A stretch of 59,326 nucleotides of DNA from Acidimicrobiia bacterium (lineage in GTDB: Bacteria; Actinomycetota; Acidimicrobiia; Acidimicrobiales; Aldehydirespiratoraceae), in assembly GCA_030432715.1 (NCBI GenBank), contig JAUIML010000002.1, forward strand, positions 1-59,326, given 5' to 3'. The notes under the pieces were generated by a model. It was not told where the DNA came from. It saw only the letters and a list, made by a program, of their open reading frames with translations, and searched no databases. Below are positions 6,500 to 46,079 of this stretch, piece by piece. Both the position numbers and the translations under genes were made by a program. Each line of letters starts with the position of its first letter. Positions within the stretch are counted from its first letter, which is position 1.

Positions 6500-7014
6500 G
6501 CTCCCGGCCTTTCGTCGGCGGTCGTGTCGTCGATGAACCCCTGCGACCGCAGCCGTTCGAGGGCCTGGCTGGTGGCCGCCTTGACGGTGCCTTCGGCACA
6601 ACCCAGGTGCTCGGCCGCCTCGGCCACCGAGAGGCCCAGGTAGAAGCGGGCCACCAGCGTCGCCCGCTGGCGCTCCGGCAGCGACGCGACTGCGTCACGG
6701 ATGGCGACACCCTCGGCTGGGTCGACGACGAAGGGCGCGGCCGATCCCCGCGCCCGCCGCTCGATCGACCGCCGGCGCCACCGCGACACCGCGAGGTTGC
6801 GAGCCGTACGAAAGGCCCATCCCTCCGGCGATGCCATCGCCCCGACGGTGTCCCACCGCTCCCAGGCCCGGGCCAACGCCTCCTGCGCGAGCTCCTCGGC
6901 GAGGTGACGGTCGCCGGTGTAGAGCACCAGCGCGGCAACGAGCCGCCCTCGCACGTCTGCACAGAACTGCGCCGGATCGACGGGATTCATCGCCACAGGA
7001 ACGCTTCCCCCCAC
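6496..7014 (-). CDS. ECF-type sigma-70 family RNA polymerase sigma factor
   Basis: Region 2 reads AEELAQEALARAWERWDTVGAMASPEGWAFRTARNLAVSRWRR. Region 4 reads LPERQRATLVARFYLGLSVAEAAEHLGCAEGTVKAATSQALERLR. The start could instead be ATG 6990. Confidence 0.85.
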   Translation of the reverse strand: MGGSVPVAMNPVDPAQFCADVRGRLVAALVLYTGDRHLAEELAQEALARAWERWDTVGAMASPEGWAFRTARNLAVSRWRRRSIERRARGSAAPFVVDPAEGVAIRDAVASLPERQRATLVARFYLGLSVAEAAEHLGCAEGTVKAATSQALERLRSQGFIDDTTADERPGA

Positions 7015-7051
7015 CGATCGGTTTAGTCGTCGGCAATGCTCCGCGCCGCTC

Positions 7052-7074
7052 GGAGTCCTGCTGCGCCCGACTCC
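7052..7074 (-). terminator. Hairpin GGAGTC-N11-GACTCC just downstream of the giant gene stop
   Basis: 6-bp inverted repeat read directly, located between the stop at 7090 and the sigma gene start. The stem is weak. Confidence 0.3.
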
Positions 7075-7089
7075 CCGGTGTGACGGGGG
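7075..7089 (+). repeat. Core copy of the intergenic repeat (CCGGTGTGACGGGGG)
   Basis: Exact 13-mer match to 2516-2528 and 15697-15709. It abuts the stop codon of the giant gene. Confidence 0.7.
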
Positions 7090-10000
7090 TCAGGTGGGGA
7101 GAGGGCCGGGCGGGCGGGAGCGGCGGGCGACGAGCACGAGGGCGGCGCCGAGCAGCAGCAGGACGACAGCCCAACCGAGCAGGCGGGCGATGTCGGTGCC
7201 GGTGATGGCGAGGATCGACTGGGCGGGGGTCTCGGTCGTCCGCGTGATGTCGTCGTCGGGCGCCGTGATCTCGTCGATCACCTCACTCGGGATGGGGTTG
7301 CCACCGACCGTGTTGCCGCCTTCGACGGTGCCGACGTTGACGATCGACTGACCCTCGGCACCGGTGACCGTCGTGGTGAGCACGATGGTCGTCGACGCGT
7401 CGACGGCGAGCACGTCGTCGGTCGTGCAGGTGACGAGTTGTCCGACCGCGTTGCAGTCGAAGTCGTCGCTTGCTGCGCCGACATAGGTCAGGCCGTCCGG
7501 AAGGTCGTCGGTGACGGTGATGGTGTCGTTGGTCGGCGACGGACCGAAGTTGGTCACCACCAGCGTCCAGTCGACGTCCTGCCCCGAGACGAGCTCGCCG
7601 TCGACACTCTTCTCGATGTCGAGCAGGGCGAGCGGAACGTCGACCTCGTCGGTGTCGGTGTCGTTCTCGGGAACGGTGTCGGGCAGGCCGCCGGTCACCG
7701 TGACCTCAGCCGTGTTGGTCACACCCGGCGCGGCTTCGGCACCCACGTCGACGGTGAGCTCGAGCGTCGACGACGCACCGACGGCCAGCGGGCCGGTCGT
7801 GAGGTCACAGGTGAAGGTCTGCCCTGCCACCACGCACGACCAGTCCTCGGCCAGCAGGGCCGTCGGCGTCAGGCCGGCGGGCACCTCGTCGGTCACGGTG
7901 ATCGTCCCCTCGGACACGGCGGGGCCGTTGTTGGTGACCGTCAGCGTCCACACGCCTTCGCCACCGACCGCGAACGGCCCGGTCGACGACTTGTCGATCG
8001 CGATGTCGGCCTCGCGGCGTTCGCCGAAGTCGACGTCGTCACGGTCTTCGCCGGCGCCGAGAGTCACCTCCGTCGTGCGGTCACGGCCACCGTCGAGGTC
8101 GTAGGTCGGCCCCAGGTCGGGTGCCAGCGTGGTCGGGTCGAGCGACACCGTGTAGTCGCCCGGAGGCAGGTTGCCCACGCCGTAGAGCCCACCGCCGGCG
8201 GTCGTGGTCCGGTACTCGACGTCGTCCAGCGACTCGTCGACTCCCGGGGTCGCCGGGTCGTCGCCGAGCACACCATCGAAGCCGGCGAACCGAACGATCA
8301 CATCGACCCCGTCGATCGGCAGCTCGCCGCCGTCCTGCACGCCGTCGGCATCGTCGTCCACCCAGACGAGGTCGCCGATGCTGCCGGTGCCGGTGTAGCC
8401 GAAGTCGACGTCGAGATAGCTCGGGTTCACCCCGGTCAGCGTGATCGACGCCACGATCCCGTCCATCACGCCCGGCTCGGCGTTGTTGGCCTGGGTGTCG
8501 GTGATGTCGGGCGTGTCGACCAGTTCGAAGGTCTGGCGCAGACCCGGAGGGAGGTCATCCGTGTCGACCGTCACCGTGAGCGGGATGTCCTGGGGAAGCC
8601 CGGTGAAGGCGTACTCGCCTTCCTCGTTGGTGGTGGTCGTGATGCTGCGGGTCGACCCGTCCCCCGGATCGAGCCACGACACGGTCACGTCGATGCCGGC
8701 GATGCCCGGTTCACCGGCGTCCTGCTCGCCGTCGTCGTCGACGTCGAACCAGATGCGGTTTCCGAGGTCGGCGTTGGTCGGGGTGAGGCTGGCCGAGTCG
8801 TTGTCGTCCTCGTCGGGACCGACCCCGTCGTCGTGGTTGCCCGGGGTCGAGTCGATGTCCCACTGTCCGGCCGACTCCACCTCGGCGATGTTGACGATCG
8901 TGGTCGAGGAGTTGATCCGCACGACGATGTCGAGCGTGGCCGACGCCCCGGAAGCGAGCGGCGATGCCAGTGTCCACACGTCGGTCGTGTCGTCGTAGGC
9001 ACCGTTGGCGGAACTGGCCGAATCGAAGACCACCCCGGCGGGGAGCACGTCGGTGATGGTCACGTCGGTCGCGGTGTCGACCGCGATGCCGCTGTCGTCG
9101 TTCGTGACCGTCACGCGATAGGTGACGAAGTCGCCGAAGAAGTAGGGGGCCGATTCGACGATGGTCTTGTCGATCGTCAGGTCGATGCGCCGGATGCGCG
9201 CGACTGCGTCGTCGGAGCCGTGGACCCCGTCGGGCGCCCCGTTGTCGTCGCCGTACGAGCCGGTCTCGTTGCTCGACTCGCCGGTTGCGTCGTCGCCGGT
9301 CACTCCGGAGTCGTTGACATGGTCGAACGAGCCGGTGGTCGCCGTGGTCAACAGCGACGCCTGGGGCTGCACGTCGAATTCGATCACGAACGAATCGCCG
9401 GCATCGAGTTCGCCCACGACATCGGTCCACACCAGCGGGCCGGCGGCGCCGCCGGCCGGGTCACCGAGTGCCCCGAACCCACTCCCGGTGTCGATCTCTG
9501 CCGATCCGGGCTGGTACAGCCAGCCCGTGGGCAGCACATCGTCGACGTCGATGTCGAAGGCCGACACCGGGCCGTCGTTGAAGACCTCGAGGCGCCAGCG
9601 GAAATCCTCGCCCACTCGGGCGTCGGTGGCGTCCATTCCCGCGGCCGGCGTCTTCTGGATCACCAGATCGGGGAACCCGACCGTGAGGGTGTTGACATCG
9701 GCGGTGACCGGGTTGCGGCTGTCGCCGTATTCGGGCACGTCGGTGCCGTCGGGCGCCGCGGCTCGATCGGCGGTGGACAGGCCCCAGTAGCTGGGCACGT
9801 CGGCGGTGTTGACCAGATCCTGGTCGTCGGCGAGATCGGCCGACGGGCCGATCACCACGTCGTAGGTGAATGTGACGGATCCACCGGCGGCGGCCAGCGG
9901 ACCGGCGACGGTCCAGGTGAGCGTGCGGGGGCCGGCACCGTCGAACACGGGTGCCGGGGTGCCGATGATGTTCGACGGATCGCCGGCCGCTTCCGCGGGC

Positions 10001-13000
10001 AGCGTGTCGACGACCGTGAGGTCGTGGGCCGGGCCGTCGCCGTTGTTGGTGACGGTCACGGTGAAGCGATGGGTCGCCCCGACTTCGGTGTCGCAGACAT
10101 CGGCGTCGGGCGTCGCCTCACAGGCCGTCGGGCCCGGATCGAGGACCTGGACGTCCTTGTCGATCACCACCAGGGGTTCGATCACGTCGATCGTCTCGGC
10201 TTCGGGGCCGACGGTCTCGTCCCACACCTCTCCGTCGAGGTCGGTGACCTCGTCGGGGTCGGATCCGATCTCGTCGGTCTCGTGCCAGACCACCGAGGCG
10301 GCGTTGTCGCCACTCGAGGCCGTGGTGGCGGCGGTGTCGACATGGGTCGAGTAGGGCAGCGTGATCCGGCACTCGGCGCCGTCGGCGAAGACGTCGCCCA
10401 GGAACCAGCCGGCCGTCTGCCCGTCGGGAGTGAGGGCGATCACGTCGCCGGGGACGAGCGCTCCTCCACCGACCCGTTCGCACTCGGGACCACTGATGGT
10501 CGGGGTGCCGTAGGAGTCGAACTCGAGGAACGACGGGAGCGCGTCGAACACCGCCATGTCGAAGGCGCGGTTGTCGACGGGCACCGCGACGGTCACCTCG
10601 AAGTCAACCGCTTCCCCGACCGCGTAACTCGTGGTGTCGGTGTCGCTCAGATCGAACGGATCGCCGTCGAAGGGGGCGACGTCCTTGGCCAGGGTGGCCA
10701 GGGGCAGCTCCACCGTGTCGGTGTCGGTGTCGGAGTACGTGGTGCGTTCGTTGGCCGCCGGCCCGTCGGCGGCCCGGCTCTCTGCCGTCACCTCCGCGGT
10801 GTTGGTGAGCTGCGTGCTCGCGACAGCCGGGTTGTCGATCGTCACCGTGTAGCTGAGGGTGATCGAATCGCCGACCTCCAGGGCCGCCAGCGCCGCCACT
10901 TCGGCCTGGGTCCAGGTGATCGTTCCTTCTGCGCTGGCCGGCACGCCACTGGCGAAGACACCACCGTCGGGGTTGTCGGCGGGCACGCCCGACGCGAACG
11001 AGACACCCTCGGGCAACACGTCGGTGACGACGAGATCGTAGGCCGCGGAGGTCCGCCCCGAACCGAGGTCGGGATTGGTGACCACCAGCGAGTAGGTGAC
11101 CGAGTCGCCCGGGGCGACGTTGCTGATGCCATCGGCCGGAGTGTCGGTGTCGGTGCCGTCGTCGGACTTCGCGATGGTCGGGTTGGGCTCGTTCACCCAG
11201 GTCGTGATCCGGGGCGACGACGCCGTGGGGGCCGCGGTGCCGCCGCTGGTGTCCCAGTCGACGTCGACGGTGTTGCGGATGGCGTCGCCCACGTCGACCC
11301 CGGGGGCGTCGTCGACGACCACGGTGAAGGTGAGTGACACGAGATCGTCGAGGCTGCCGACCGCGTTGTCCCAGGTGGGCGGGAAGGTGACGGTCACGTC
11401 GTCGGCGGCAACGTCCACGAGCAGGTCACCAGCGTGCTCGGTCGTCGAGCCGTCGACGTCGAAGTAGGCATCGGTGGCCGACGAGATGGTGAGGGGAATG
11501 GTGGTCGCGCCGTTGTCGAGACTCAGCCCGCCGGCGTCGAAACTCACGAAGTCGATCTCGCTGTCGAGATCGTCGGTGATGACGGCGTCGTAGAGGTCGA
11601 CCCCTTCGGGGATCGTCACGTCGAACGTGTAGGTGACCGTCTCGCCGATGGTCGCCTCCTGGGCGCTCGCCGAGGCGGGCGCGTTGGTGTCGTTGGTGCC
11701 GCCGCCGTCGTCGTCGCTCGAGGTCTGCACCTTCACCACAGCGAGGTCGGGCACCGTGACCGTCGCCTGGTCCCTGGCCGCCGTGGCGTTCTCCGACGGC
11801 TCGTTCGCCTCGTCGATGTTGTCCGCAGGCACATAGGTCGGGGTCGACCCGGCATTGCCGGTGCTCCCGGTGTAGTCGCGGACGCCGGCGTCGTTGACCA
11901 GGTCGACACCGGCGACCACGGTGACCGGCAGGGTGATGGAGTACGACAGGGTGGTCGTCTCCTGCGGCGCCAGGTCGACGATCGTCATGGTCAGCACGCT
12001 GCGGCCGTCGGTGGCCTGCCCGCCGAGCGGGTAGCCGACATCGCCGTCGTCGAGACACGTGACCGTCTCACCCGTGCTGAGCGTGGGCGCCGTCGTGACG
12101 TCGGCACACTCGATGTCGATCGGCAGGATGTCCCACGTGCGCACGCCGAACGCGGTGGCGTAGAGGTCCTCGGCGCCGGTGGCGCCCGACTCGAAGTCGT
12201 TGGTGATGTCGACCTCGTAGTCGAACACGTCGAGCTGCACGCCGGTCTCGGCACCGTCGTCGGTGGTATCGCCCGCGGGTGCGTTGCGCTTGTCGAGCAC
12301 GACATGGGGTTCCACGTGGGGATAGCCCGCCTGGTCGCGGCTCGAGAAGGTGACCCCACCACTGTTGTCGTTGTTCTGCAGCGTCAGCTTGGCGAGATTG
12401 TCGATGATGTCGACACCGGTGACGTCACGCGGATCGTCGGACAGCCGCACCGAGAAGATCACTTCGAACCGGTCGGCGGAGTTGTCGACATAGAGGTCGG
12501 AGCCCCCGCCGGGGATGGTGGTCCCGAGCGTCCAGCTCAACGCCTCGTCGGTCGCGCCGCTCGGCGCGGTACCGGGTCCGGCCTCGAAGTCGTAGACCTC
12601 GTCGATGACGGCGTCGTTGACGGTGAACACCTGACCCGTGTCGGTGTCGTCGCCCCAGAAGGCCTCGAACACCGAATCCGGCGGGATGAAGTCGGACACC
12701 ACCGGGTTGCGGAAGTGCAGGTCGCCGAGGAACTCGACGACGATCCGGTAGCAGACGCGATCGCCGGGCCGGTAGGCCCAGTCCGCCTCGTCGGGGGTGG
12801 GCGGAGTGTCCGTCGTGAACGTGGCCGAGTCGCAGTCGAGGAGCACACCCGGTGCCGTCGGTTGAGAGACGCTCTTGTCGATCACGACGACGCCGGACGC
12901 CTGCCCGGCCGAGGACGCGTCCGCTGTGGTCTCGGTGACCCGGTCGAGGTCGACGGCACCGTCCATGATCGGACTGGTGGTCGCAGTGATGTCGACATCG

Positions 13001-14697
13001 TTGGTGAAGGCATCGGCGCCGACAACCGGGGTGTCGTCGTCGAACGCTTCCTGATAGTCGACCCGGACGCGCGACGTGAAGGTGATCTCGTAGTCGTCGT
13101 TGGTCGTGAGGTCGGGAACGGTCGACCACACGAGGGTCCACGACCCGTCGGTGTCCTCGGTGACGACGTCGGGATCGTCGACGACACCGTCGACCGTGGG
13201 CGACGGCAGTCCGCCGGGCTGCAAACACTCGGTGCCGATCGGGGCGATGGTCTCGGGATTGCCCGTCGAGAGGATCGGGCACTGGCCGTCGGGCAGGGAG
13301 TCGGTCACGACGACCCCGGTCGCATCGCGGTACTCGCCGGTCTCGACGACCAGCGTCCAACCGGGCAGCTCGGTCTGGGTGAACACGCCATCGTCGACCG
13401 ACTTGTGGATCGACAGGTCCTCGGCCGTGACCGCCCAGGAGTCCTCGGCCGACGACGTGAGGTCGTCGATCCCCGGGTTGTAGTTGCCGGTCGCCCGCGA
13501 CCAGTTCCGCAGGGTCTGCTCGTCGGTGGTGAGCGGGCCGTTGTTGTTGTCGAGATCGGCCGTGTCGTCGCCGATGTCGACATGGCCGACCGCGAAGGAC
13601 GTGGTGTTCTCGCGGAGGGGGACGCCGGCCGCATACATCAGCTCGAAGCGATCGCTCGGCGCCATCGTGCCGATCGTGGCGCTCAGATCCCAGACGACAT
13701 GGGTGTAGACCCCGGCAGCCTGACCGGGGAACTGCTCGTCGGCGGCGAGCGTCACCGTCTCGACCGTCGTCGGCGTCTCACAGGTGGCGGCCACACCGTT
13801 GCTCGTCGGGTCGGTCGGGCTCACCCCGACACCGAGCGCTCCGGCGCCTGCGTACTCCTCGGTCCCGGTCGCCGACGCGTTGGTGACCGGCACGGCATCG
13901 GTGTTGTCGACGGCTCCGCAACCCAGGAACTCGAGGCCGGCCGGGAGGTAGTCCTCGACCACGATCGAGTCGGTCGGGTCGACGAGGTTGTTGTCGACCG
14001 TCAGGCTGTAGGTGGTCCATTCCGTGTGGACGCCCCGCAACAGTTCACGTTCGGCGTTCGGCTCGAACTTCTCGATGTCGATCGCCTCGATCCGGGTGAC
14101 GATGCTCGCGGTGTCGAAGGCCGAGGTGTCGCCGTTGTCGACATGGGCGCCTGTGGCGTCGAAGTCGGGGATCTGGCGGACGTCGCCGGACATGTAGGCG
14201 CCGCCCGAGTTCGTGACCGTCGAGCCCACCGCGAACGACGCCTCGGTGAGGTCGACGGTGACGGTGATCGACTGTGACACGCCGGACTGGAGGTCGGCCA
14301 CGTTCTCGAACAGCAGGGTGGTCTGCCCCGCCGCGGGTTCGTCGGGGAAGACGGTGGGGTTGCCCGCGCTCGACGACACGAAGGTCGCGCCGGGCGGGAG
14401 CACTTCGCGGAACGTGAGGTTGTAGCCGTCGGCCCCGGTTCCGTTGTTGGTCGCGGTCAGGGTGTAGGTCACGTCCTCGCCGTAGAGGATCGTGGCCGGC
14501 CCGGACTTGGTGAAATCGAGCGACGCGTCGTTGGCCGCCGCTGCGGGTTCGGGCGACGCGACGAGGTCCACGACGGTGAGGCTGGTGGCGAGCAGGGCTG
14601 CGAGGCTCAGCAGGGCGAGCGGGCGGCGGGGGAAGCGGCGAATCACAGAGCGACGGTAGCAGCGCCCCACCATGCATCCGGGAACCCCGCGGAGCAC
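7090..14697 (-). CDS. Giant (about 2535 aa) cell-wall-anchored surface protein/adhesin with DUF11-type and SdrD-B/Cna-B-type repeats and an LAxTG sorting signal
   Basis: Signal-like N-terminus RRFPRRPLALLSLAALLATSLTVVDLVASPEPAAAA. DUF11-like repeats include TVTNNGPAVSEGTITVTDEVPAGL, LVVTNFGPSPTNDTITVTDDLPDGL and VTVTNDDSGIAVDTATDVTITDVLPAGV. Cna-B-like modules include NRIWFDVDDDGEQDAGEPGIAGIDVTV and GDLVWVDDDADGVQDGGELPIDGVDVIV. The start is uncertain (14697, 14673 or GTG 14646). Confidence 0.9.
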   Translation of the reverse strand: MLRGVPGCMVGRCYRRSVIRRFPRRPLALLSLAALLATSLTVVDLVASPEPAAAANDASLDFTKSGPATILYGEDVTYTLTATNNGTGADGYNLTFREVLPPGATFVSSSAGNPTVFPDEPAAGQTTLLFENVADLQSGVSQSITVTVDLTEASFAVGSTVTNSGGAYMSGDVRQIPDFDATGAHVDNGDTSAFDTASIVTRIEAIDIEKFEPNAERELLRGVHTEWTTYSLTVDNNLVDPTDSIVVEDYLPAGLEFLGCGAVDNTDAVPVTNASATGTEEYAGAGALGVGVSPTDPTSNGVAATCETPTTVETVTLAADEQFPGQAAGVYTHVVWDLSATIGTMAPSDRFELMYAAGVPLRENTTSFAVGHVDIGDDTADLDNNNGPLTTDEQTLRNWSRATGNYNPGIDDLTSSAEDSWAVTAEDLSIHKSVDDGVFTQTELPGWTLVVETGEYRDATGVVVTDSLPDGQCPILSTGNPETIAPIGTECLQPGGLPSPTVDGVVDDPDVVTEDTDGSWTLVWSTVPDLTTNDDYEITFTSRVRVDYQEAFDDDTPVVGADAFTNDVDITATTSPIMDGAVDLDRVTETTADASSAGQASGVVVIDKSVSQPTAPGVLLDCDSATFTTDTPPTPDEADWAYRPGDRVCYRIVVEFLGDLHFRNPVVSDFIPPDSVFEAFWGDDTDTGQVFTVNDAVIDEVYDFEAGPGTAPSGATDEALSWTLGTTIPGGGSDLYVDNSADRFEVIFSVRLSDDPRDVTGVDIIDNLAKLTLQNNDNSGGVTFSSRDQAGYPHVEPHVVLDKRNAPAGDTTDDGAETGVQLDVFDYEVDITNDFESGATGAEDLYATAFGVRTWDILPIDIECADVTTAPTLSTGETVTCLDDGDVGYPLGGQATDGRSVLTMTIVDLAPQETTTLSYSITLPVTVVAGVDLVNDAGVRDYTGSTGNAGSTPTYVPADNIDEANEPSENATAARDQATVTVPDLAVVKVQTSSDDDGGGTNDTNAPASASAQEATIGETVTYTFDVTIPEGVDLYDAVITDDLDSEIDFVSFDAGGLSLDNGATTIPLTISSATDAYFDVDGSTTEHAGDLLVDVAADDVTVTFPPTWDNAVGSLDDLVSLTFTVVVDDAPGVDVGDAIRNTVDVDWDTSGGTAAPTASSPRITTWVNEPNPTIAKSDDGTDTDTPADGISNVAPGDSVTYSLVVTNPDLGSGRTSAAYDLVVTDVLPEGVSFASGVPADNPDGGVFASGVPASAEGTITWTQAEVAALAALEVGDSITLSYTVTIDNPAVASTQLTNTAEVTAESRAADGPAANERTTYSDTDTDTVELPLATLAKDVAPFDGDPFDLSDTDTTSYAVGEAVDFEVTVAVPVDNRAFDMAVFDALPSFLEFDSYGTPTISGPECERVGGGALVPGDVIALTPDGQTAGWFLGDVFADGAECRITLPYSTHVDTAATTASSGDNAASVVWHETDEIGSDPDEVTDLDGEVWDETVGPEAETIDVIEPLVVIDKDVQVLDPGPTACEATPDADVCDTEVGATHRFTVTVTNNGDGPAHDLTVVDTLPAEAAGDPSNIIGTPAPVFDGAGPRTLTWTVAGPLAAAGGSVTFTYDVVIGPSADLADDQDLVNTADVPSYWGLSTADRAAAPDGTDVPEYGDSRNPVTADVNTLTVGFPDLVIQKTPAAGMDATDARVGEDFRWRLEVFNDGPVSAFDIDVDDVLPTGWLYQPGSAEIDTGSGFGALGDPAGGAAGPLVWTDVVGELDAGDSFVIEFDVQPQASLLTTATTGSFDHVNDSGVTGDDATGESSNETGSYGDDNGAPDGVHGSDDAVARIRRIDLTIDKTIVESAPYFFGDFVTYRVTVTNDDSGIAVDTATDVTITDVLPAGVVFDSASSANGAYDDTTDVWTLASPLASGASATLDIVVRINSSTTIVNIAEVESAGQWDIDSTPGNHDDGVGPDEDDNDSASLTPTNADLGNRIWFDVDDDGEQDAGEPGIAGIDVTVSWLDPGDGSTRSITTTTNEEGEYAFTGLPQDIPLTVTVDTDDLPPGLRQTFELVDTPDITDTQANNAEPGVMDGIVASITLTGVNPSYLDVDFGYTGTGSIGDLVWVDDDADGVQDGGELPIDGVDVIVRFAGFDGVLGDDPATPGVDESLDDVEYRTTTAGGGLYGVGNLPPGDYTVSLDPTTLAPDLGPTYDLDGGRDRTTEVTLGAGEDRDDVDFGERREADIAIDKSSTGPFAVGGEGVWTLTVTNNGPAVSEGTITVTDEVPAGLTPTALLAEDWSCVVAGQTFTCDLTTGPLAVGASSTLELTVDVGAEAAPGVTNTAEVTVTGGLPDTVPENDTDTDEVDVPLALLDIEKSVDGELVSGQDVDWTLVVTNFGPSPTNDTITVTDDLPDGLTYVGAASDDFDCNAVGQLVTCTTDDVLAVDASTTIVLTTTVTGAEGQSIVNVGTVEGGNTVGGNPIPSEVIDEITAPDDDITRTTETPAQSILAITGTDIARLLGWAVVLLLLGAALVLVARRSRPPGPLPT
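7093..7212 (-). other. C-terminal sorting signal: LAITG, hydrophobic segment, then RRSR tail
   Basis: LAITG is encoded at 7198-7212. It is followed by TDIARLLGWAVVLLLLGAALVLVARRSRPPGPLPT. LAxTG is the motif used by class E sortases of Actinobacteria. Confidence 0.8.
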
Positions 14698-14712
14698 CGC
14701 GCGACCTCGACC

Positions 14713-14723
14713 GAACAGTGTTC
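14713..14723. promoter_or_regulatory. Perfect palindrome GAACAGTGTTC in the 46-nt gap between the LLM stop and the giant gene start
   Basis: Read directly. Its reverse complement shares the 10-mer TGAACACTGT with 17061-17070, upstream of the nearby TetR gene. Confidence 0.3.
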
Positions 14724-19583: not shown

Positions 19584-19669
19584 GACACATCACGGCCCGA
19601 CCGTCCTAACATCTCCCTCCAACCCGCGCCGCAGGCGGTGGTGCGGGTCGTGGGCGGGCGAGGACGGCG

Positions 19670-21388
19670 ATGCGTTGGTGGACGGTGGTCACGATCGGAG
19701 CACTTCTGTCCGTCGTCGCGCCCGCCGCGCCGGCTGGAGGTCTCCACGAGGACTCGACCGACACGCGGGCGCGCCACCCGCACGACTTCCCCGATCCCCA
19801 CATCGTCTACGACCCGGCCAACCGCACCTACACCGCCTACGCCACCAACACGGGGGTGTCGACGCTGCCGATGTTGACGGCGACCCACCTCGACGACTGG
19901 ACCGCCCAGAGCGACACCTTCGACCCACCTTCGTGGGCGGCTCCGGTCGACGGTGGGGTCGAGCTCTGGGCGCCGTCGGTCCACCAGCTCGCGAACGGAG
20001 AATGGCGGGCCTACTCGGCCATCCGCCAACGGTCCGGTTTCCCGCAGCATCGCTACTGCATCTCGGTGGCCATCGGCCCGGGCCCGGCCGGGCCCTTCAC
20101 CGACGACAGCGACGCGCCGCTCACCTGCGGCTACGGCGCCGCCGGCGCCATCGACCCCTGGGTCCACATCGACGACGAGGGCAATCCGTGGCTGCTGTGG
20201 AAGATGGAGGACCACAAGCGGGTCGACATCGCCGACGACGACGTGCACTTCCCGCTCCCCGGTTGGCTCGTGGCCGTGCGGGCCGACGCCCGCGCCCGCG
20301 GCGAACTCGTCCCCTTGCGCCAGATCGACTCAGCGCCCGACGCGATCTGGTCGCAACGCCTCGACGAGCGCGGCCTTGCGTTCCATCAGCCCGACGACGA
20401 GGCCGAGGACGACACACCCTTCTCGGCATCGATCCTGCTCACGGCCCAGACGAAGACCTGGGAACGCAGCATCGTCGAGAGCCCGGCGATGTTCACCGCT
20501 GGAGGCCGGCTCCATCTGCTCTACAGCGGCAACCGCTACCAGTCCCACGAGTACGCCACGGGCTGGGCGACGTGCGATGGCCCCGACGGGCCTTGCTCGA
20601 GGGCGAGTGACCAGCCGATCCTCGCCCACGGCGACACCATCAACGGACCCGGCGGGGCGTCCGTGTTCGTCGACGGAGCCGGCGACCATCGCATCGCCTT
20701 CCATGCCTGGATCGCTCCCCACGTCTCATACGCCGACGGCGGCAAACGCCTTCTCCACATCGAGCAGCTCTGCGTCCTTCCCGACCGGAGCCTGTCGGTT
20801 CGAGTCCCCGACGGATGGCGTTTCTGCGACGTCGATCCGGTCACCTGGTTCGGGGCCGGCGTTGCATGGATGGCCGACGAGGGCATCACCACCGGCGTGA
20901 GCGAGGGCCGTTTCGCGCCCGAACGCTCGCTGTCCCGCGCCGAGGCGGTCACGTTGCTCTGGCGATGGGCCGGGAGTCCCGCGCCGAGCAGGCCGAGCGC
21001 GTTCACCGACGTCGAGGAGGGGCGCTACTACACCCGCGCCGCCCACTGGGCCGCCGAGGTCGGCATCATCCGCGGTACCACTCCGACGACCTTCGATCCC
21101 GACGCGACGATCAATCGGGCGCAGGTCGTGACGATTCTCCACCGCGCCGCCGGCGAGCCCAGCGGACCGGGCGACCCTGCCTTCGACGACGTACCCTCCG
21201 ACGCGTTCTACGCCGCCGCGACCGACTGGGCCGCCGCGGTCGGCATCACCACCGGCCGCACACCGACCGAGTTCCGGCCGGGCGAATCGGCCACCCGGGC
21301 CCAGTTCTCCACGATGCTGTGCCGGTTCTCCCGCACGGATTCGGCCCGCGCGCGATGGGCCGGGCCGCACTGTGAGGACTCGCCCTGA
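19670..21388 (+). CDS. Secreted GH43-like beta-propeller protein with three C-terminal SLH (S-layer homology) domains
   Basis: Signal peptide MRWWTVVTIGALLSVVAPAAPAGG. GH43-like blocks FPDPHIVYDPANRTYTAYATN, ELWAPSVHQL and IDPWVHIDDEGNPWLLWK. SLH repeats FCDVDPVTWFGAGVAWMADEGITTG, FTDVEEGRYYTRAAHWAAEVGIIRG and FDDVPSDAFYAAATDWAAAVGITTG. Confidence 0.7.
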   Translation: MRWWTVVTIGALLSVVAPAAPAGGLHEDSTDTRARHPHDFPDPHIVYDPANRTYTAYATNTGVSTLPMLTATHLDDWTAQSDTFDPPSWAAPVDGGVELWAPSVHQLANGEWRAYSAIRQRSGFPQHRYCISVAIGPGPAGPFTDDSDAPLTCGYGAAGAIDPWVHIDDEGNPWLLWKMEDHKRVDIADDDVHFPLPGWLVAVRADARARGELVPLRQIDSAPDAIWSQRLDERGLAFHQPDDEAEDDTPFSASILLTAQTKTWERSIVESPAMFTAGGRLHLLYSGNRYQSHEYATGWATCDGPDGPCSRASDQPILAHGDTINGPGGASVFVDGAGDHRIAFHAWIAPHVSYADGGKRLLHIEQLCVLPDRSLSVRVPDGWRFCDVDPVTWFGAGVAWMADEGITTGVSEGRFAPERSLSRAEAVTLLWRWAGSPAPSRPSAFTDVEEGRYYTRAAHWAAEVGIIRGTTPTTFDPDATINRAQVVTILHRAAGEPSGPGDPAFDDVPSDAFYAAATDWAAAVGITTGRTPTEFRPGESATRAQFSTMLCRFSRTDSARARWAGPHCEDSP

Positions 21389-28178: not shown

Positions 28179-28655
28179 TCAGCCGAGCAGCGTCGGGAGC
28201 TGTTCGGCGACCTCTTCGGGGGTCACCATCGGTGAGAACCGTGCGACCACGTCGCCGGCCGAGTTCACGAGGAACTTCTCGAAGTTCCAGGTGATGTCGG
28301 AGGTCTCGCCCTCACCGGGCTGCTCCGACTTCAACCAGTCGTAGAGGTCACAGGCGCCGTCGCCGTTGACCTCGATCTTGGCGAACATCGGGAAGTCGAT
28401 GTCGTAGTTGTCCGTCACGAAGGTGCGGATCTCCTCGGCCGAACCCGGTTCCTGGCCGCCGAACTGGTTGCACGGGAAGCCCAGGACCTGGACCCCGTTG
28501 TCGTCATGATGAAGCGTACGCAGACCTGCGTACTGAGGCGTGAGGCCTCAAGCGGAGGCGACGTTGACGATGAGCACGGCGCTGTCGGCGAAATCGCTGA
28601 ACGACACCTGTTCACCCTCGAGCGACGCCATCTCGAACTCGTGGAAACGAGCCAT
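28179..28655 (-). CDS. gpx: Glutathione peroxidase with in-frame TGA (predicted selenocysteine) at the peroxidatic position, codon 36
   Basis: ATG at 28653-28655, with AGGGAG 6 nt upstream. My translation: MARFHEFEMASLEGEQVSFSDFADSAVLIVNVASA-[TGA 28548-28550]-GLTPQYAGLRTLHHDDNGVQVLGFPCNQFGGQEPGSAEEIRTFVTDNYDIDFPMFAKIEV...WNFEKFLV. The track shows only the C-terminal fragment 28179-28418. Confidence 0.8.
28516..28533 (-). other. SECIS-like hairpin GUACGCA-GGUC-UGCGUAC, starting 14 nt after the GPx UGA
   Basis: Perfect 7-bp stem with a GGUC loop, read directly. The apical GCAGGUCUGC matches the E. coli fdhF SECIS apex as I recall it. Confidence 0.65.
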
Positions 28656-28762
28656 GGATCTCCCTTGTCAGGCGCCGGGTCCGTCCCGGCGGAATGGATC
28701 GTAGCGGGCCGGCCGAGACCGCACCCACGGAGCCGCCGGCGGAGTCACCCGCGATCTGGGGT

Positions 28763-29092: not shown

Positions 29093-31333
29093 CTACCGCT
29101 CGTTGAGCGCCTTGAGCACGTTGGGCGGCGACATCGGCAGGTTGGTCATGCGCACGCCGGTCTGGTCGGCGATGGCGTTGGCCAGGGTGCCGATCGGCGG
29201 GACGATGCCGGTCTCCCCCACGCCGCGCACGCCGTAGGGGTGGCTCGGGTTGGGCACCTCGACGATGATCGTCTCGATCATCGGCAGGTCCGACGCCACC
29301 GGCATGCGGTAGTCGAGGAATCCGGCGTTCTGCATCACCCCGTCGGCGGAGAAGATGTACTCCTCGTTGAGTGCCCATCCGATGCCCTGGGCGGATCCGC
29401 CCTGCATCTGGCCCTCGACATACGACGGGTGGATGGCCGTGCCCGCGTCCTGGGCCGCGGTGTAGCGCAGGATCTCGACCTGGCCCGTCTCCTCGTCGAC
29501 CCGCACGTCGGCGAGGTGCGCGGCGAACGAGGGGCCGGCACCGGCCGCGTTGAGCGAGGCCGTCGCGGTGAGCGGACCACCGGTCATCTTCGCGGCGGCG
29601 GTGATCTCCGCGATCGAGACCGGATCGGCCCCCTCCGAGGGCGGACCCTCGATGACCGCGGCGCCGTCGATCCAGGCGACCTGGTCGGCGGCGACGCCGC
29701 GCATCACCGCGGCCCGCTCCTTCATCTGCTCGATGAGGTCGCGGCACGCGTTGACCACGGCCATCCCGGTGGCGAAGGTGGCCCGACTGCCCTCGGTGAT
29801 GTCGGTGAACCCGACCGACTCGGTGTCGGCCACGATCGGGGTGATCCGGTGGACGTCGAGCCCGAGCTCCTCGGCCGCCATCAGCGCCATCGAGGCCCGA
29901 CTACCACCGATGTCGGGACTGCCGGTGATCACGGTCGCGGTGCCGTCCTCGTTGAGGTTGACGGTCGCACTCGACTGTTCGCCGATGTTGAACCAGAACC
30001 CGGTGCCGAACCCGCGACCGGCGCCCTCGGGCACCGGGGAGTTGTAGTGCTCGCTGTTCTTGATCGCCTCGAGCGTCTCGATGAAGCCGATCTTCGGGTG
30101 GGGTGCACCCATCGCCGTGGGGTCGCCCTCGACCACCGCGTTCTTCAGTCGGAGCTCGATCGGATCCATCTCCAGCTGGTCGGCGACTTCGTCGATGAGC
30201 GTCTCGATGGCGAACGCGGCCTGTGGGGCGGACGGGGCCCGGTAGGCGGCCGACTTGGGGGTGTTGTCGACCGTGCCGATCGCCATCAGATCGAGGTTGG
30301 GGAACTTGTAGGAGGCGATGGACATGGCGCCGGTGAGGGCGGCGTATCCCTTGGCCGAACCGTTGCTGTAGTGGAGCGTGCCCTGGATGGTGGTGAGTTC
30401 GCCGTCCTTGGTGGCACCCATCTTCATGTGGATCTTCGACGCCGGTGCCGGACCGGTGGCCCGCAGCACCTCTTCCCGGGTCATCACGATCTTCACCGGA
30501 CGACCGGCCTTCTGGCTCAGCCGCACCGCGATCGGCTCGAGATAGATGGTGGTCTTGCCCCCGAAGCCGCCACCGATCTCGGCCGGCGTCACCTTGATCT
30601 TGTCGGTCCCCCACCCGAGGATCTTGGCGGTCTTGGACCGCACCGCGAAGTGCCCCTGCGACGAGGCCCAGATGGTCGCCTTGCCGTCCTGGCCCACGTC
30701 GGCCACACAGGCGTGGGGTTCGATGTAGCCCTGGTGCACGGCCTTGGTCGTGAAGGTCCGTTCGACTATCACGTCGGCCGCCGCGAATCCGGCGTCGACG
30801 TCGCCGCGCTGGAACGGACCGACCGACGCGATGTTGGACGGCTCGGTGTCGCCGGTGAAGAGCGTCCGGTTGGTCGAGTTGGCGATCGGGGCACCCTCGG
30901 CGATCGCCTCGTCGATGGAGAGCACGGCCGGGAGCACTTCGTATTCGACTTCGACCGCAGCGGCCGCGGCGCGGGCCTCTTCCATCGTGGTGGCGGCGAC
31001 GGCAGCCACTGCGTGACCGACGTAGAGCGCCTCGTCGCGGGCGATGTTGTTGACCGCCTCGTCGTGCGCCGAGTCGCTCGGATCGATGGCCGGGAAGTCG
31101 GCACCCGTGACGACCGACTTCACGCCGGGCATCGCCTCGGCCGCGCTGGTGTCGATCGACACGATCCGGGCGTGGGCGTGGGGCGAGCGGACGATCGCAC
31201 CGCGGAGCTGGCCCGTGAGGTCGAGGTCGGCCGCGAACCGGGCCTTGCCGGTGACCTTGTCGAGCCCGTCGTGGCGGACGGGCCGGGTGCCCACGTACTT
31301 GTACTTCGATGGGGGGTTCTCTGTCGCGGTCAC
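29093..31333 (-). CDS. Xanthine dehydrogenase-family molybdopterin-binding large subunit (CoxL-like; not a canonical CO dehydrogenase)
   Basis: Track ORF 29093-32005, trimmed to GTG 31333, which overlaps the small-subunit TGA. VTATENPPSKYKYVGTRPVRHDGLDKVTGKARFAADL... It contains AAYRAPSAPQAAFAIE rather than AYxCSFR. Confidence 0.85.
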   Translation of the reverse strand: MTATENPPSKYKYVGTRPVRHDGLDKVTGKARFAADLDLTGQLRGAIVRSPHAHARIVSIDTSAAEAMPGVKSVVTGADFPAIDPSDSAHDEAVNNIARDEALYVGHAVAAVAATTMEEARAAAAAVEVEYEVLPAVLSIDEAIAEGAPIANSTNRTLFTGDTEPSNIASVGPFQRGDVDAGFAAADVIVERTFTTKAVHQGYIEPHACVADVGQDGKATIWASSQGHFAVRSKTAKILGWGTDKIKVTPAEIGGGFGGKTTIYLEPIAVRLSQKAGRPVKIVMTREEVLRATGPAPASKIHMKMGATKDGELTTIQGTLHYSNGSAKGYAALTGAMSIASYKFPNLDLMAIGTVDNTPKSAAYRAPSAPQAAFAIETLIDEVADQLEMDPIELRLKNAVVEGDPTAMGAPHPKIGFIETLEAIKNSEHYNSPVPEGAGRGFGTGFWFNIGEQSSATVNLNEDGTATVITGSPDIGGSRASMALMAAEELGLDVHRITPIVADTESVGFTDITEGSRATFATGMAVVNACRDLIEQMKERAAVMRGVAADQVAWIDGAAVIEGPPSEGADPVSIAEITAAAKMTGGPLTATASLNAAGAGPSFAAHLADVRVDEETGQVEILRYTAAQDAGTAIHPSYVEGQMQGGSAQGIGWALNEEYIFSADGVMQNAGFLDYRMPVASDLPMIETIIVEVPNPSHPYGVRGVGETGIVPPIGTLANAIADQTGVRMTNLPMSPPNVLKALNER

Positions 31334-31815
31334 GACTTCGCTCCGTTCAGTTGGACGGCGGCTTCTTGGACGGCGTGGATGATCTTGTCGTAGCCCGTAC
31401 AGCGGCAGAGGTTGCCGGCCAGGGCGTAGCGGATCTCGGTCTCGGTGGGCGTCGGATTCTCGTCGAGCAACACCTTGGCCGCGACCAGGAAGCCCGGCGT
31501 GCAGATGCCGCACTGCAGCGCCGCACCCTCTAGGAAGGTCTCCTGGAGCGGGTGGAGGTGGTCGCCCTGGGCGATGCCCTCGACGGTGCCGATCTCGCGA
31601 CCTTCGGCCTCGGGAGCGAACATCAGGCAGGCGCAGTTGAGCGCGCCGTCGACCGTGATCGAGCAGGCGCCACAGTCGCCGGTGCCACACCCCTCCTTCA
31701 CGCCGGTGAGTCCGAGCTCGGTGCGCAGGGCGTCGAGCAGGGAGGTGCTGTCGGTGGCGAGGAAGTCGACCTCGTCGCCGTTGACGGTGCAATGGACATG
31801 CGTGCGATTGATCAT
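31330..31815 (-). CDS. (2Fe-2S)-binding small subunit (CoxS-like)
   Basis: MINRTHVHCTVNGDEV...GCGTGDCGACSITVDG...CGICTPGF...GNLCRCTGY. ATGA overlap with the upstream gene. Confidence 0.9.
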   Translation of the reverse strand: MINRTHVHCTVNGDEVDFLATDSTSLLDALRTELGLTGVKEGCGTGDCGACSITVDGALNCACLMFAPEAEGREIGTVEGIAQGDHLHPLQETFLEGAALQCGICTPGFLVAAKVLLDENPTPTETEIRYALAGNLCRCTGYDKIIHAVQEAAVQLNGAKS

Positions 31816-32663
31816 GCGTTGGCCCTCTCTGCGGCGATGGTGGCGGCTCGCTTGGCGAGCACACCGGCGACCTGACGGCGGTATTCGATGGTGCCCCGCT
31901 TGTCGTCGATGGGGTTGCAGGCCGCGGACGCGGCTGCGGCCACCGCCTCGAGCGTGGCGTCGTCGAGCGTCGAACCCACCAGGGCCGCCTCGGCGTCGGG
32001 AACACGGACGACGGTCGGGGCCACGGCGCCCAACGCGACCGTGGCGGCCGTGCAGGTGCCGCCGTCCATCGTCAGACGGACGGCAGCGCCGACCACCGCG
32101 ATGTCCATCTCGGTTCGAGGAATGAGCCGCAGGTAGGCATCGGCGGTGTGGGCCGGCGGTGTGTCGACCTGGAACTCGACGACGAACTCGTCGTCGGCCA
32201 GCGAGGTCTGCCCCGGCCCGGTGACGATCTCCTCGACGGGCACGGTGCGTTCCCCGTTGCTGCCGGCGACGACGGCACGTACGGCGTTGGCCACGAGGGC
32301 GGGAACCGAGTCGGCCGCGGGCGACGCGTTGCAGAGATTGCCGCCCCAGCTCGAACGATTCTGGATCTGGTCGGAACCGATGAGGCCGCTCGCCTCGCTC
32401 AGTCCGGGGAAGGCCCCGGTGAACGCCTCGTCCGCGGTGAGGGTCGACGTCGGGGTCGCTGCGCCGACGGTCCACGTGCCGCCGGACTCACCGACGCCGA
32501 CGAGACGGTCGATCCGCTTCAGGTCGACGAGCACGGACGGCTCGGGTCGGCCCGATCGGATCTGTGGGATCAGGTCGGTGGCTCCGGCGAAGACGCGGGC
32601 GTCGGCATCGGCCGCCAGCAGCCCGACCGCCTCGTCCACCGTTGTTGGTGCGGCATATCTCAT
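31812..32663 (-). CDS. FAD-binding medium subunit (CoxM-like)
   Basis: Track ORF trimmed to ATG 32661-32663. MRYAAPTTVDEAVGLLAADADARVFAGATDLIPQIRSGRPEPSVLVDLKRI...GGNLCNASPAADS. Confidence 0.85.
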   Translation of the reverse strand: MRYAAPTTVDEAVGLLAADADARVFAGATDLIPQIRSGRPEPSVLVDLKRIDRLVGVGESGGTWTVGAATPTSTLTADEAFTGAFPGLSEASGLIGSDQIQNRSSWGGNLCNASPAADSVPALVANAVRAVVAGSNGERTVPVEEIVTGPGQTSLADDEFVVEFQVDTPPAHTADAYLRLIPRTEMDIAVVGAAVRLTMDGGTCTAATVALGAVAPTVVRVPDAEAALVGSTLDDATLEAVAAAASAACNPIDDKRGTIEYRRQVAGVLAKRAATIAAERANA

Positions 32664-44391: not shown

Positions 44392-44441
44392 GTCTCGCTC
44401 GACGACTCCAGTAGGGCCACCCTCGCGCCGATCATGAACGG

Positions 44442-46079
44442 GTGCAGTCCACCGGTCGCCGGCGTGCGCTCCCCACCCTGATCTCGCTCCTCTGCGTGCT
44501 CGCGCTCGTCGCTCCGGCCGGCGCCTACCCGGGTGCCCCGTTCTTCGAGCCGGGCGAGACCTACGACCAGAACTTCCCCGACCCGGCGATCATCCGCGTG
44601 GGGAACACGTACTACGCCTACGCCACCACCACGGGCGGCCAGTCGATGCCGGTGATGACCTCGACCGACCTCGTCACCTGGACCGCTCGCGGCGATGCGC
44701 TCGGGACCGGCCCCTCGTGGACGCCCCCCATCGAGATCGGTTGGAACATCTGGGCGCCGACCGTGGTGGAGTTGCCGAACGGTCAGTACCTCGCCGCGTT
44801 CGCCGCCCGCACCGGCAGTGGTTCCCGCCGGTGCATCGCCACGGCGCGGGCCGACTCTCCCCTCGGCCCGTTCACGGCCCTGGGCGACGAACCCTTCGTC
44901 TGTGAGCCCGACCCCGATGGCGCGCTCGATCCCTTCCTGATCGTCGACGACGCCGATGTGCCCTGGCTGATCTGGAAGAACGAAGGCGTGCCGGTCGGGC
45001 ACCCGACGTTGTCCAGCCGCCGGACCGGTTTCTGGTCGCGCCAGTTGACCGACGACGGCGGGGCATGGCGATCCGGGTCGTCGGTGCACTTCCTGATGGA
45101 GACGACGGAGGTCGAGCGCCCCTGGCAGGGCACCGTCGTGGAGAACCCGGCGATGGCGGCGTGGGACGGCGCCTACTTCCTCACCTACTCGGCCAACTCC
45201 TACCAGAGCACTGCGTACGCGACCGGTTGGGCCCGCTGCTCCACACCGGGCGGTCCCTGTGTCGAACCCTCGACCGAACCGTTGTTGGTGTCCGACGACG
45301 TGCGCCTCGGTCCGGGTGGTCCCGCTCCGTTCGTCGACACCGACGGGGTGCTCCGGTTGGGCTATCACGGCTGGAACCCCCCGTTCACCACCTATCCGTC
45401 CTACCCGTCATGTGACACCGACGGCGACGGCACCTGCCCCGAGGCCCAGCGCTTCCTCTTCATCGACCCGATCTGCGTGAGCGGCGAACGGGCCTTCGTC
45501 TACACCCCGCACGGCGAACCCTTCTGCGACGTCGACCCCGGTCGGTACTACACGGAGGCCGTCGCCTGGCTCGCCGAGGAGGACATCACGACGGGCATCA
45601 GTCCCAGCGCCTATGGCCCCCACCAGACGGTGAGCCGAGCCCAGATGGCCACCTTCCTGTGGCGTTTGATGGGCGAGCCCACCGGCGCGCCGACGGCGCC
45701 GTTCGTCGACGTCGAGACCGGGCGCTTCTACAGCGACGCCGTCGCCTGGCTCGCCGATGCCGACATCACCACCGGACTCACCCCGTCCACGTTCGGGCCC
45801 GACGGCACCGTGACCCGCGCCCAGATGGCGGTCTTCCTGTGGCGACTCGTGGGCGAGCCGACGGCCCCGGCCACCTCGGGGTTCGTCGATGTGGCCGCCG
45901 GTCGGTGGTACTCCGACGGCGTGGCCTGGTTGGCCGACCAGGAGGTGACGACCGGCGTCGCGCCCGGAGTGTTCGATCCCGATGGTGCCGTCACCCGCGC
46001 CCAGATGGCGGCCTTCCTCTGTCGGTTGAGCGGCACGGACGCGTACACGGCGAGCGCCGCCCCCACACCGGGCTGCTGA
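44442..46079 (+). CDS. Secreted GH43-like beta-propeller protein with three C-terminal SLH domains (paralog of 19670-21388)
   Basis: Signal RRRALPTLISLLCVLALVAPAGA. FPDPAIIRVGNTYYAYATTTGG, NIWAPTVVEL, LDPFLIVDDADVPWLIWK. SLH repeats FCDVDPGRYYTEAVAWLAEEDITTG, FVDVETGRFYSDAVAWLADADITTG and FVDVAAGRWYSDGVAWLADQEVTTG. Confidence 0.7.
   Translation: MQSTGRRRALPTLISLLCVLALVAPAGAYPGAPFFEPGETYDQNFPDPAIIRVGNTYYAYATTTGGQSMPVMTSTDLVTWTARGDALGTGPSWTPPIEIGWNIWAPTVVELPNGQYLAAFAARTGSGSRRCIATARADSPLGPFTALGDEPFVCEPDPDGALDPFLIVDDADVPWLIWKNEGVPVGHPTLSSRRTGFWSRQLTDDGGAWRSGSSVHFLMETTEVERPWQGTVVENPAMAAWDGAYFLTYSANSYQSTAYATGWARCSTPGGPCVEPSTEPLLVSDDVRLGPGGPAPFVDTDGVLRLGYHGWNPPFTTYPSYPSCDTDGDGTCPEAQRFLFIDPICVSGERAFVYTPHGEPFCDVDPGRYYTEAVAWLAEEDITTGISPSAYGPHQTVSRAQMATFLWRLMGEPTGAPTAPFVDVETGRFYSDAVAWLADADITTGLTPSTFGPDGTVTRAQMAVFLWRLVGEPTAPATSGFVDVAAGRWYSDGVAWLADQEVTTGVAPGVFDPDGAVTRAQMAAFLCRLSGTDAYTASAAPTPGC

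Follow-up and report, generated by a model that had tools for sequence, protein, structure and literature searches.

A stretch of 59,326 nucleotides from an Acidimicrobiia bacterium (contig JAUIML010000002.1, positions 1 to 59,326, here called the window) contains on its minus strand, at positions 28179-28655, a gene for a glutathione peroxidase (GPx) that is very probably intact and in which a single in-frame TGA codon is predicted to encode selenocysteine (Sec). The TGA occupies the position of the peroxidatic residue and is followed by a hairpin with the features of a bacterial selenocysteine insertion sequence (SECIS). An earlier interpretation made from the letters of the window only, which we refer to as the sequence-only reading, had proposed a selenocysteine GPx with such an element, and this was the best-supported reading after comparison with related genes: TGA was present in 21 of 21 relatives, both halves of the gene were conserved, and the hairpin was constrained specifically in the TGA-type genes.

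Read on the minus strand from 28655 to 28179, the gene consisted of a single frame interrupted by one TGA only, at codon 36, and contained the motif blocks LIVNVASA-[TGA]-GLTPQY, LGFPCNQFGGQEP, and WNFEKFLV, with coordinates and motifs as they had been given in the sequence-only reading. When Cys was put at codon 36, the translation scored 126.6 bits against the GSHPx family (PF00255; E 4e-37, with a cutoff of 27 bits), in an alignment that ran across the TGA and covered residues 4-109 and profile positions 1-108 of 108. The catalytic tetrad was located at the canonical positions U36 (TGA), Q68, W123, and N124. The GC content at third codon positions (GC3) was 0.83 before the TGA and 0.88 after it, which argues that both parts bear the coding signature of the genome. 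The mechanical list of open reading frames (ORFs) for the window includes only 28179-28418, and thus covers the C-terminal half of the gene, as had been pointed out. The Shine-Dalgarno-like sequence AGGGAG reported upstream of the start codon was also present (28665-28660), with a spacing to the ATG of 4 nt and not of 6 nt as stated. The features of the gene are listed in Table 1.

Table 1. Features of the GPx gene and its predicted SECIS, with positions counted from the first nucleotide of the window.
Feature	Position	Strand	Basis or remark
GPx coding sequence	28179..28655	(-)	158 sense codons including Sec36, plus terminal TGA (28179-28181); translation
Shine-Dalgarno-like AGGGAG	28660..28665	(-)	Ends 4 nt before ATG 28655-28653; read from sequence
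Predicted selenocysteine codon 36, peroxidatic residue, U-G-L-T motif	28548..28550	(-)	TGA aligned to Cys codons
17-nt block C CAG TAC GCA GGT CTG C...	28519..28535	(-)	Nucleotide-invariant in 21/21 TGA-type genes, alignment A2
Predicted bacterial SECIS, 7-bp stem GUACGCA/UGCGUAC, apical loop GGUC (28526-28523)	28516..28533	(-)	Fold and comparison
Gln68 codon, catalytic-tetrad Gln (GGQEP)	28452..28454	(-)	Invariant in alignment A1; aligned to GKQEP Gln of GPX4-type structures
Val80 codon, site of the resolving Cys of 2-Cys GPx (yeast Gpx3/Hyr1 Cys82)	28416..28418	(-)	Alignment to 3cmi
Trp123-Asn124 codons, catalytic tetrad (WNFEKFLV)	28284..28289	(-)	Invariant in alignment A1; aligned to WNF of solved GPx structures

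Relatives of the gene were collected in a genome scan with one genome per GTDB species, which returned 80 loci, and further contigs were reached via truncated proteins. The homologous codon was TGA in all 15 of the 15 closest loci (61% to 96% identity), which come from metagenome-assembled genomes labelled Acidimicrobiales, Acidimicrobiaceae, Ilumatobacteraceae, Ca. Aldehydirespiratoraceae, or Actinomycetota. The site was TGC or TGT in the more distant homologs, both in those of other phyla and in those of other Acidimicrobiales. The arrangement in 7 more contigs, found via the truncated proteins, was the same as in the closest loci. In the complete set, TGA was found at codon 36 in all 21 distinct relatives, which came from genomes and metagenomes of Acidimicrobiales and covered the same range of identities, and a Cys codon (TGC or TGT) was aligned to the window TGA in 60 more distant Cys-type homologs. 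An alignment to Cys-type orthologs had been suggested in the sequence-only reading as a check, and it placed Cys at the TGA with both halves of the protein conserved. A neighbor-joining tree of 82 sequences united the 21 TGA-type genes and 2 variants with TGT or CGA at the site in one clade that contained no other Cys-type sequence, and this clade formed a group of its own nested among the bacterial Cys-type GPx. It was also noted that the gene order in L091 and L092 was the same as in the window, namely subunits of the xanthine dehydrogenase family, a ThiS-like gene, the GPx gene, 2 ABC exporters, and a SnoaL-like gene.

No frame disruptions were observed in the region upstream of the TGA in the TGA-type genes, for which the mean ratio of the proportions of nonsynonymous and synonymous differences (pN/pS) was 0.52 for codons 1-35 vs 0.36 for the C-terminal part. 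The residues that are invariant before the TGA turned over synonymously, and Ser34 switched between TCN and AGY codons, which argues for selection at the protein level upstream of the TGA. Synonymous divergence was only 0.27 in the 12 codons after the TGA, as compared to 0.55 to 0.60 elsewhere. Among 48 degenerate columns that were invariant in amino acid in the 21 sequences, a single codon was used at codons 41-45 only (CAG TAC GCA GGT CTG), corresponding to 5 of the 6 columns within codons 41-46 and none of the 42 columns outside (Fisher p = 3.5e-6). These 5 codons make up the 5' arm of the hairpin, its loop, and the start of its 3' arm, and 2 of them, GCA and GGT, are rare here, accounting for 6% and 17% of their codon families. 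As a control, we examined 15 Cys-type homologs that encode QYAGL and found 13 different 15-mers, none of which was equal to the sequence in the clade. Over 19 distinct sequences, 97.7% of the cells in the hairpin were paired, and the support for the putative element is the invariance of synonymous sites specific to the TGA-type genes, not covariation. Decay of the N-terminal part or a hairpin that is not conserved had been named beforehand as observations that would speak for a pseudogene; instead, the N-terminal 35 codons were conserved and the hairpin was invariant at synonymous sites.

The hairpin GUACGCA-GGUC-UGCGUAC was found where the sequence-only reading had placed it, at 28533-28516, starting 14 nt past the TGA and with a distance of 21 nt from the UGA to the apical loop. 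In published descriptions of bacterial SECIS elements, a small apical loop that contains a G follows the UGA at a distance of 16-37 nt (PMC10778597; PMC1088965), and the window hairpin agrees with this geometry in both its 21-nt distance and its 4-nt loop containing GG. The apex GCAGGUCUGC, composed of the 3 closing pairs and the GGUC loop, was identical to the apex of the SECIS in the Escherichia coli fdhF gene. This identity, already proposed in the sequence-only reading, was confirmed against NC_000913.3, in which the sequence of fdhF is TGA CAC GGC CCA TCG GTT GCA GGT CTG CAC C. The 10-mer GCAGGTCTGC is common to fdhF and the window and is read in the same codon phase (GCA GGU CUG) in both genes, whereas neither the lower part of the element nor the host protein is related. 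Another small hairpin (UGAGGC-CUCAC-GCCUCA) is located at 28534-28550 on the minus strand and contains the UGA itself. RNAalifold retained 4 of its pairs (U1-A17, G2-C16, G4-C14, and G5-C13) in nearly all relatives; they may represent a lower helix of the SECIS or a by-product of coding, since codons for Gly, Pro, and Gln also fix these same bases.

Alignments to solved GPx structures had E-values of 1e-38 to 1e-33, and the best matches were yeast Hyr1/Gpx3 (3cmi), the Schistosoma GPx (2v1m), and human GPX4. The resolving Cys of Hyr1, Cys82 in the segment FCQLNY, was aligned to Val80 in the segment FVTDNY of the window protein. The residue at this position was V, A, or I in 22 of 22 TGA-type genes vs C in 53 of 53 Cys-type homologs. 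Judging from the alignment, the loss of the resolving Cys implies a GPx4-like chemistry with a single Sec in a putatively monomeric enzyme.

We searched for the Sec machinery in the window and in all of the Acidimicrobiales loci, using tblastn with the E. coli SelA, SelB, and SelD proteins, and ARAGORN. The tblastn searches of the window and of the flanks in the relatives gave matches to SelD only. The selD equivalog (TIGR00476, 276 bits vs a cutoff of 125) was located 8.6 kb from the TGA-type GPx gene in L011, and a fused selD was located about 1 kb upstream of the TGA-type GPx gene in another lineage (L087/L088). The window itself contained neither selD nor any tRNA gene. In L011 (12-1421, plus strand) and L087 (10001-12193, plus strand), SelD was part of a fusion protein with a pyridine-nucleotide-disulfide oxidoreductase domain at the N-terminus (TIGR03169 plus TIGR00476). 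The active site of the fused SelD, CGGCGAK, was of the Cys type, and the fusion is also present in marine Rhodobacterales such as Ruegeria, with about 55% identity. A gene for an Rv2466c-like protein (DsbA-like thiol oxidoreductase) of 191-193 amino acids was the divergent neighbor of the fused selD in several contigs (L084-L087, about 9226-9812 on the minus strand). No selA, selB, or selC was located near the fused selD, either in its neighborhoods or in a metagenome scan that used it as the query and gave 26 loci (300 kb in total, with identities of up to 53%), which argues against a clustering of these genes with selD.

Sec decoding has been recorded for cultured Acidimicrobiales. Three members, Ilumatobacter coccineus, I. 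nonamiensis, and Ca. Microthrix parvicella, were classified as SelD+, SelA+, SelB+, and YbbB- (Peng et al. 2016, Table S1), with 15, 10, and 7 selenoproteins, respectively (Peng et al. 2016, Table S2). These counts of 7 to 15 contradict the notion in the sequence-only reading that actinobacterial selenoproteomes are small. Furthermore, for the Actinomarinales, a sister order, a 2026 preprint reports selA, selC, selD, and a divergent selB in 84 of 84 complete genomes.

Several results weigh against Sec at codon 36. No selA, selB, or tRNA-Sec was found in the 59-kb window or in about 0.5 Mb of flanking sequence in the relatives, and SelD alone is no proof of Sec decoding because orphan SelD proteins exist, including in Actinobacteria (Peng et al. 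2016, Table 1). None of the pairs in the hairpin changed on both sides: 5 of the 7 pairs were invariant, one toggled between U-A and U-G, and one was broken in 3 sequences. Covariation is, however, uninformative here because the hairpin is nearly invariant. The 64-nt hairpin region by itself folded no better than shuffled sequences (z = -1.2), and its significance therefore rests on the comparative data and not on the folding energy. Searches against Rfam, with gathering thresholds for the window and permissive thresholds for 28430-28620, produced no match to a SECIS or a tRNA-Sec, and only chance matches with E > 4. Bacterial SECIS elements are poorly modelled in Rfam, for which reason this result weighs little. 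Compared to the fdhF element, the distance of the apex from the UGA is longer by one codon (3 nt) in the window, and all 7 bp of the stem are paired without the bulged U that is present in fdhF. Both the bulged U and the 11-nt spacing matter to the E. coli SelB protein, and recognition of the window hairpin by that protein is consequently not guaranteed. Finally, no bacterial Sec-GPx is known to have been experimentally verified, and a 2026 review lists the family as 'GPX-like protein, UxxT, predicted with high confidence'.

It is conceivable, but improbable, that the UGA is recoded to an amino acid other than Sec. This could occur, for example, through SelB-dependent or hairpin-stimulated insertion of Cys by a tRNA with a UCA anticodon, or through read-through by a near-cognate tRNA-Trp or tRNA-Cys. 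PMC10778597 mentions naturally occurring variants of the Sec system in which recoding is redirected. The presence of TGT at the site in the variant L095 shows that Cys is tolerated, yet TGC or TGT would be a cheaper route to Cys, and TGA has been kept throughout the clade. SelA, SelB, and many selenoproteins are present in cultured Acidimicrobiales, and selD, which is needed for selenium use only, is linked to the GPx gene in 2 lineages. That every TGA-type gene has lost the resolving Cys also fits the chemistry of Sec.

The 2 variants in the clade bear on a different explanation, according to which the gene is a pseudogene created by a recent TGC/TGT-to-TGA nonsense mutation in a Cys-type GPx, with a hairpin that is coincidental. 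The site is TGT in L095:3001-3453 and CGA in L096:1484-1960, and the SECIS hairpin is fully intact in both. Codons one nucleotide away from TGA do thus occur in the clade, and Sec machinery was not seen in the window. However, the intact hairpins indicate that the TGT and CGA codons were derived from TGA and not the reverse. They could be assembly errors or variants within populations, or else Sec-to-Cys and Sec-to-Arg changes that occurred very recently, and the Arg form would be catalytically dead. The variant proteins P0002 (TGT) and P0001 (CGA) were also considered for a test of hairpin decay, but the hairpin was still perfect in both and the changes were too recent for this purpose. We consider a pseudogene very unlikely, given that the TGA is shared by 21 distinct genes of a single clade that have diverged down to 61% identity, that the N-terminal 35 codons are open and conserved with synonymous turnover, and that the hairpin is constrained at the nucleotide level in the TGA-type genes only. 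The divergence of the relatives also excludes assembly artefacts of one sequence.

Truncated proteins were frequent in the databases. Among the best 120 protein clusters, 60 contained proteins of 100-124 amino acids with 70% to 92% identity that covered the part after the TGA only and that started at MTPQY..., LH..., or MLGFPCNQ..., and the gene callers produced a separate ORF of 35 amino acids ahead of the truncated GPx in the contigs that were reached via these proteins. Taken at face value, the internal starts that were called in many relatives (MTPQY..., MLGFPCNQ...) would mean that translation terminates at the TGA, that the product is a downstream fragment of about 100-120 amino acids, and that the 35-codon ORF is a leader peptide or a regulatory upstream ORF. 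This scenario is very unlikely: the position of the internal start is not conserved, with forms of 121, 111, and 102 amino acids, and a product without the peroxidatic residue and without the first beta-alpha unit of the thioredoxin fold could be no peroxidase. Moreover, the 35 codons ahead of the TGA align with the N-termini of full-length GPx proteins, including the NVAS active-site motif. The comparison instead exposes a systematic annotation error, in that 60 of the 120 closest protein clusters are truncated GPx without an active site, and a spurious gene has been called on the opposite strand of at least one contig. In that 149-kb contig, the called gene (L087:13219-13764, minus strand) is an opposite-strand ORF of 181 amino acids without a match in Pfam, and the real GPx gene, with its TGA at 13306 on the plus strand, was wholly missed in the public gene call.

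A reassignment of TGA to Trp or Gly throughout the organism, which a database entry with W at the codon (P0005, L097) might bring to mind, can be dismissed with near certainty, since about 25 of the approximately 33 credible genes in the window stop at TGA, many of them with full-length Pfam domains, since the DNA of that 1.2-kb contig reads TGA and the W is an artefact of the gene caller, and since an enzyme with Trp or Gly as its peroxidatic residue would be inactive. TGA is therefore an ordinary stop codon in this organism, in agreement with the local recoding that had been proposed in the sequence-only reading.

If codon 36 encodes Sec, as we think very probable, the UGA would not be read as a stop and the hairpin would act as a bacterial SECIS that recruits SelB-GTP-Sec-tRNA(Sec) to the ribosome, upon which Sec would be inserted and a protein of 158 residues made. 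The selenolate in the Sec36-Gln68-Trp123-Asn124 tetrad would then reduce hydroperoxides and become selenenic acid. The oxidized enzyme would probably be recycled directly by an external thiol (mycothiol or another low-molecular-weight thiol, a thioredoxin, or a mycoredoxin), with no internal disulfide, because across the clade the resolving Cys has given way to Val, Ala, or Ile. The binding of SelB, the insertion of Sec, and the identity of the reductant are the steps that we infer. Mycothiol, and not glutathione, is the thiol expected in an actinobacterial host. The gene located directly 3' of the TGA-type GPx in L011 (10532-11641, plus strand) is an equivalog of S-(hydroxymethyl)mycothiol dehydrogenase (TIGR03451, 669 bits vs a cutoff of 513), which suggests that these Acidimicrobiales use mycothiol, a candidate reductant. 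The adjacency of this mycothiol-dependent formaldehyde dehydrogenase makes recycling by mycothiol or a mycoredoxin plausible.

More tentatively, GPx4-type chemistry may have been reinvented independently in bacteria by this clade. A single pair of ancestral events, the change from Cys to Sec at the peroxidatic site and the loss of the resolving Cys, would have turned a 2-Cys peroxidase of the thioredoxin type into a single-Sec enzyme that is recycled by an external thiol, plausibly mycothiol or a mycoredoxin. This enzyme, which is widely distributed and in some cases encoded beside selD, could be a principal reason for the retention of the Sec machinery in aerobic Acidimicrobiales of sea and soil. 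We regard this extended scenario as possible but, in its entirety, rather unlikely.

A wider scan for genes with an in-frame TGA and a hairpin in about 430 kb gave 93 candidates. Most of these were spurious, because off-frame ORFs in DNA with 69% GC mimic the coding signal, and the GPx genes alone stood out. The scan missed the GPx gene of the window itself, where the SECIS lowers the local GC3. Two pairs of ORFs in the window that are separated by a TGA in the same frame were also considered as selenoprotein genes and rejected. The pair at 7090/7089 consists of separate genes for a DUF11 repeat protein and a sigma factor, and the pair at 46079/46080 of separate genes for a GH43-SLH protein and a methylmalonyl-CoA mutase. 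The first of these genes (7090-14721, minus strand) is an ORF of 2,543 codons for a giant repeat protein with 7 DUF11 repeats and SdrD B-like domains, and the ECF-type sigma-70 gene at 6496-7089 follows it in the same frame after the TGA, without read-through. The window also contains 2 paralogous genes for GH43 glycoside hydrolases (19610-21388 and 44415-46079, plus strand), the C-terminal SLH domains of which imply anchoring to the cell surface. The ORF listed at 29093-32005 on the minus strand encodes a molybdopterin subunit (xanthine dehydrogenase family) of 970 amino acids, of which about 230 N-terminal residues are rich in Arg and Pro and without a domain match. In the relatives, this subunit has 743-746 amino acids and is encoded after separate genes for the FAD-binding and 2Fe-2S subunits. 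The true start is probably near VTATENPP, with the upstream part overlapping the FAD-binding and 2Fe-2S genes in another frame.

Bacterial Sec-GPx proteins were reported in 2005-2006 from the genome of Treponema denticola and from 5 Sargasso Sea sequences (PMC1088965 among the sources), and a later survey of over 5,200 genomes counted 13 organisms with such a protein (Peng et al. 2016, Table S3). The rarity that had been ascribed to such enzymes in the sequence-only reading thus holds, but they had already been catalogued in T. denticola, the Sargasso Sea, and the 13 organisms. The window gene shares with this family (for example T. denticola WP_010957027.1) the PF00255 domain, the UxxT motif, here U-G-L-T, a UGA at the peroxidatic site, and a SECIS within the ORF. 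The published catalogues that we consulted neither name carriers in the Acidimicrobiales nor mention this clade, its invariant fdhF-like hairpin, its linkage to selD, or its loss of the resolving Cys. The window gene belongs to an established predicted family in a lineage that is already known to decode Sec, and is no new kind of system. What we have not found described is the size and coherence of the clade in Acidimicrobiales, the invariant fdhF-like apex, the occasional adjacency to selD, and the perfect association with the loss of the resolving Cys. With at least 21 genes and one invariant predicted SECIS, the clade provides a comparative set for a family that is experimentally unverified. 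Cultured relatives (Ilumatobacter) make labelling or mass spectrometry feasible, and the apex that matches fdhF makes heterologous expression in E. coli worth trying.

Among proteins of solved structure, the best match was to the thioredoxin-dependent 2-Cys GPx of bacteria and yeast (Gpx3/Hyr1, 3cmi; E 4.6e-38), which have the same fold and motifs. They differ in that the peroxidatic residue is Cys, whereas Sec is predicted in the window protein, and in that Cys82 of Hyr1 corresponds to Val80. The GPx4 proteins of animals and the GPx of Schistosoma mansoni (2obi, 2v1m; E 1e-37 to 1e-34) resemble the window protein in their monomeric size (158 amino acids here), in the aligned tetrad, and in having no resolving Cys, and the segment FVTEKY in the S. 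mansoni protein is similar to the FVTxxY segment of the window clade. The SECIS of these genes, however, lies within the 3' UTR, whereas that predicted for the window gene is of the bacterial type within the ORF. Because the clade is nested among bacterial Cys-type GPx in the tree, its predicted use of Sec and its loss of the resolving Cys look independently acquired relative to animal GPx4. The complete association between the 2 traits provides a bacterial parallel to the split between SecGPx and CysGPx in eukaryotes.

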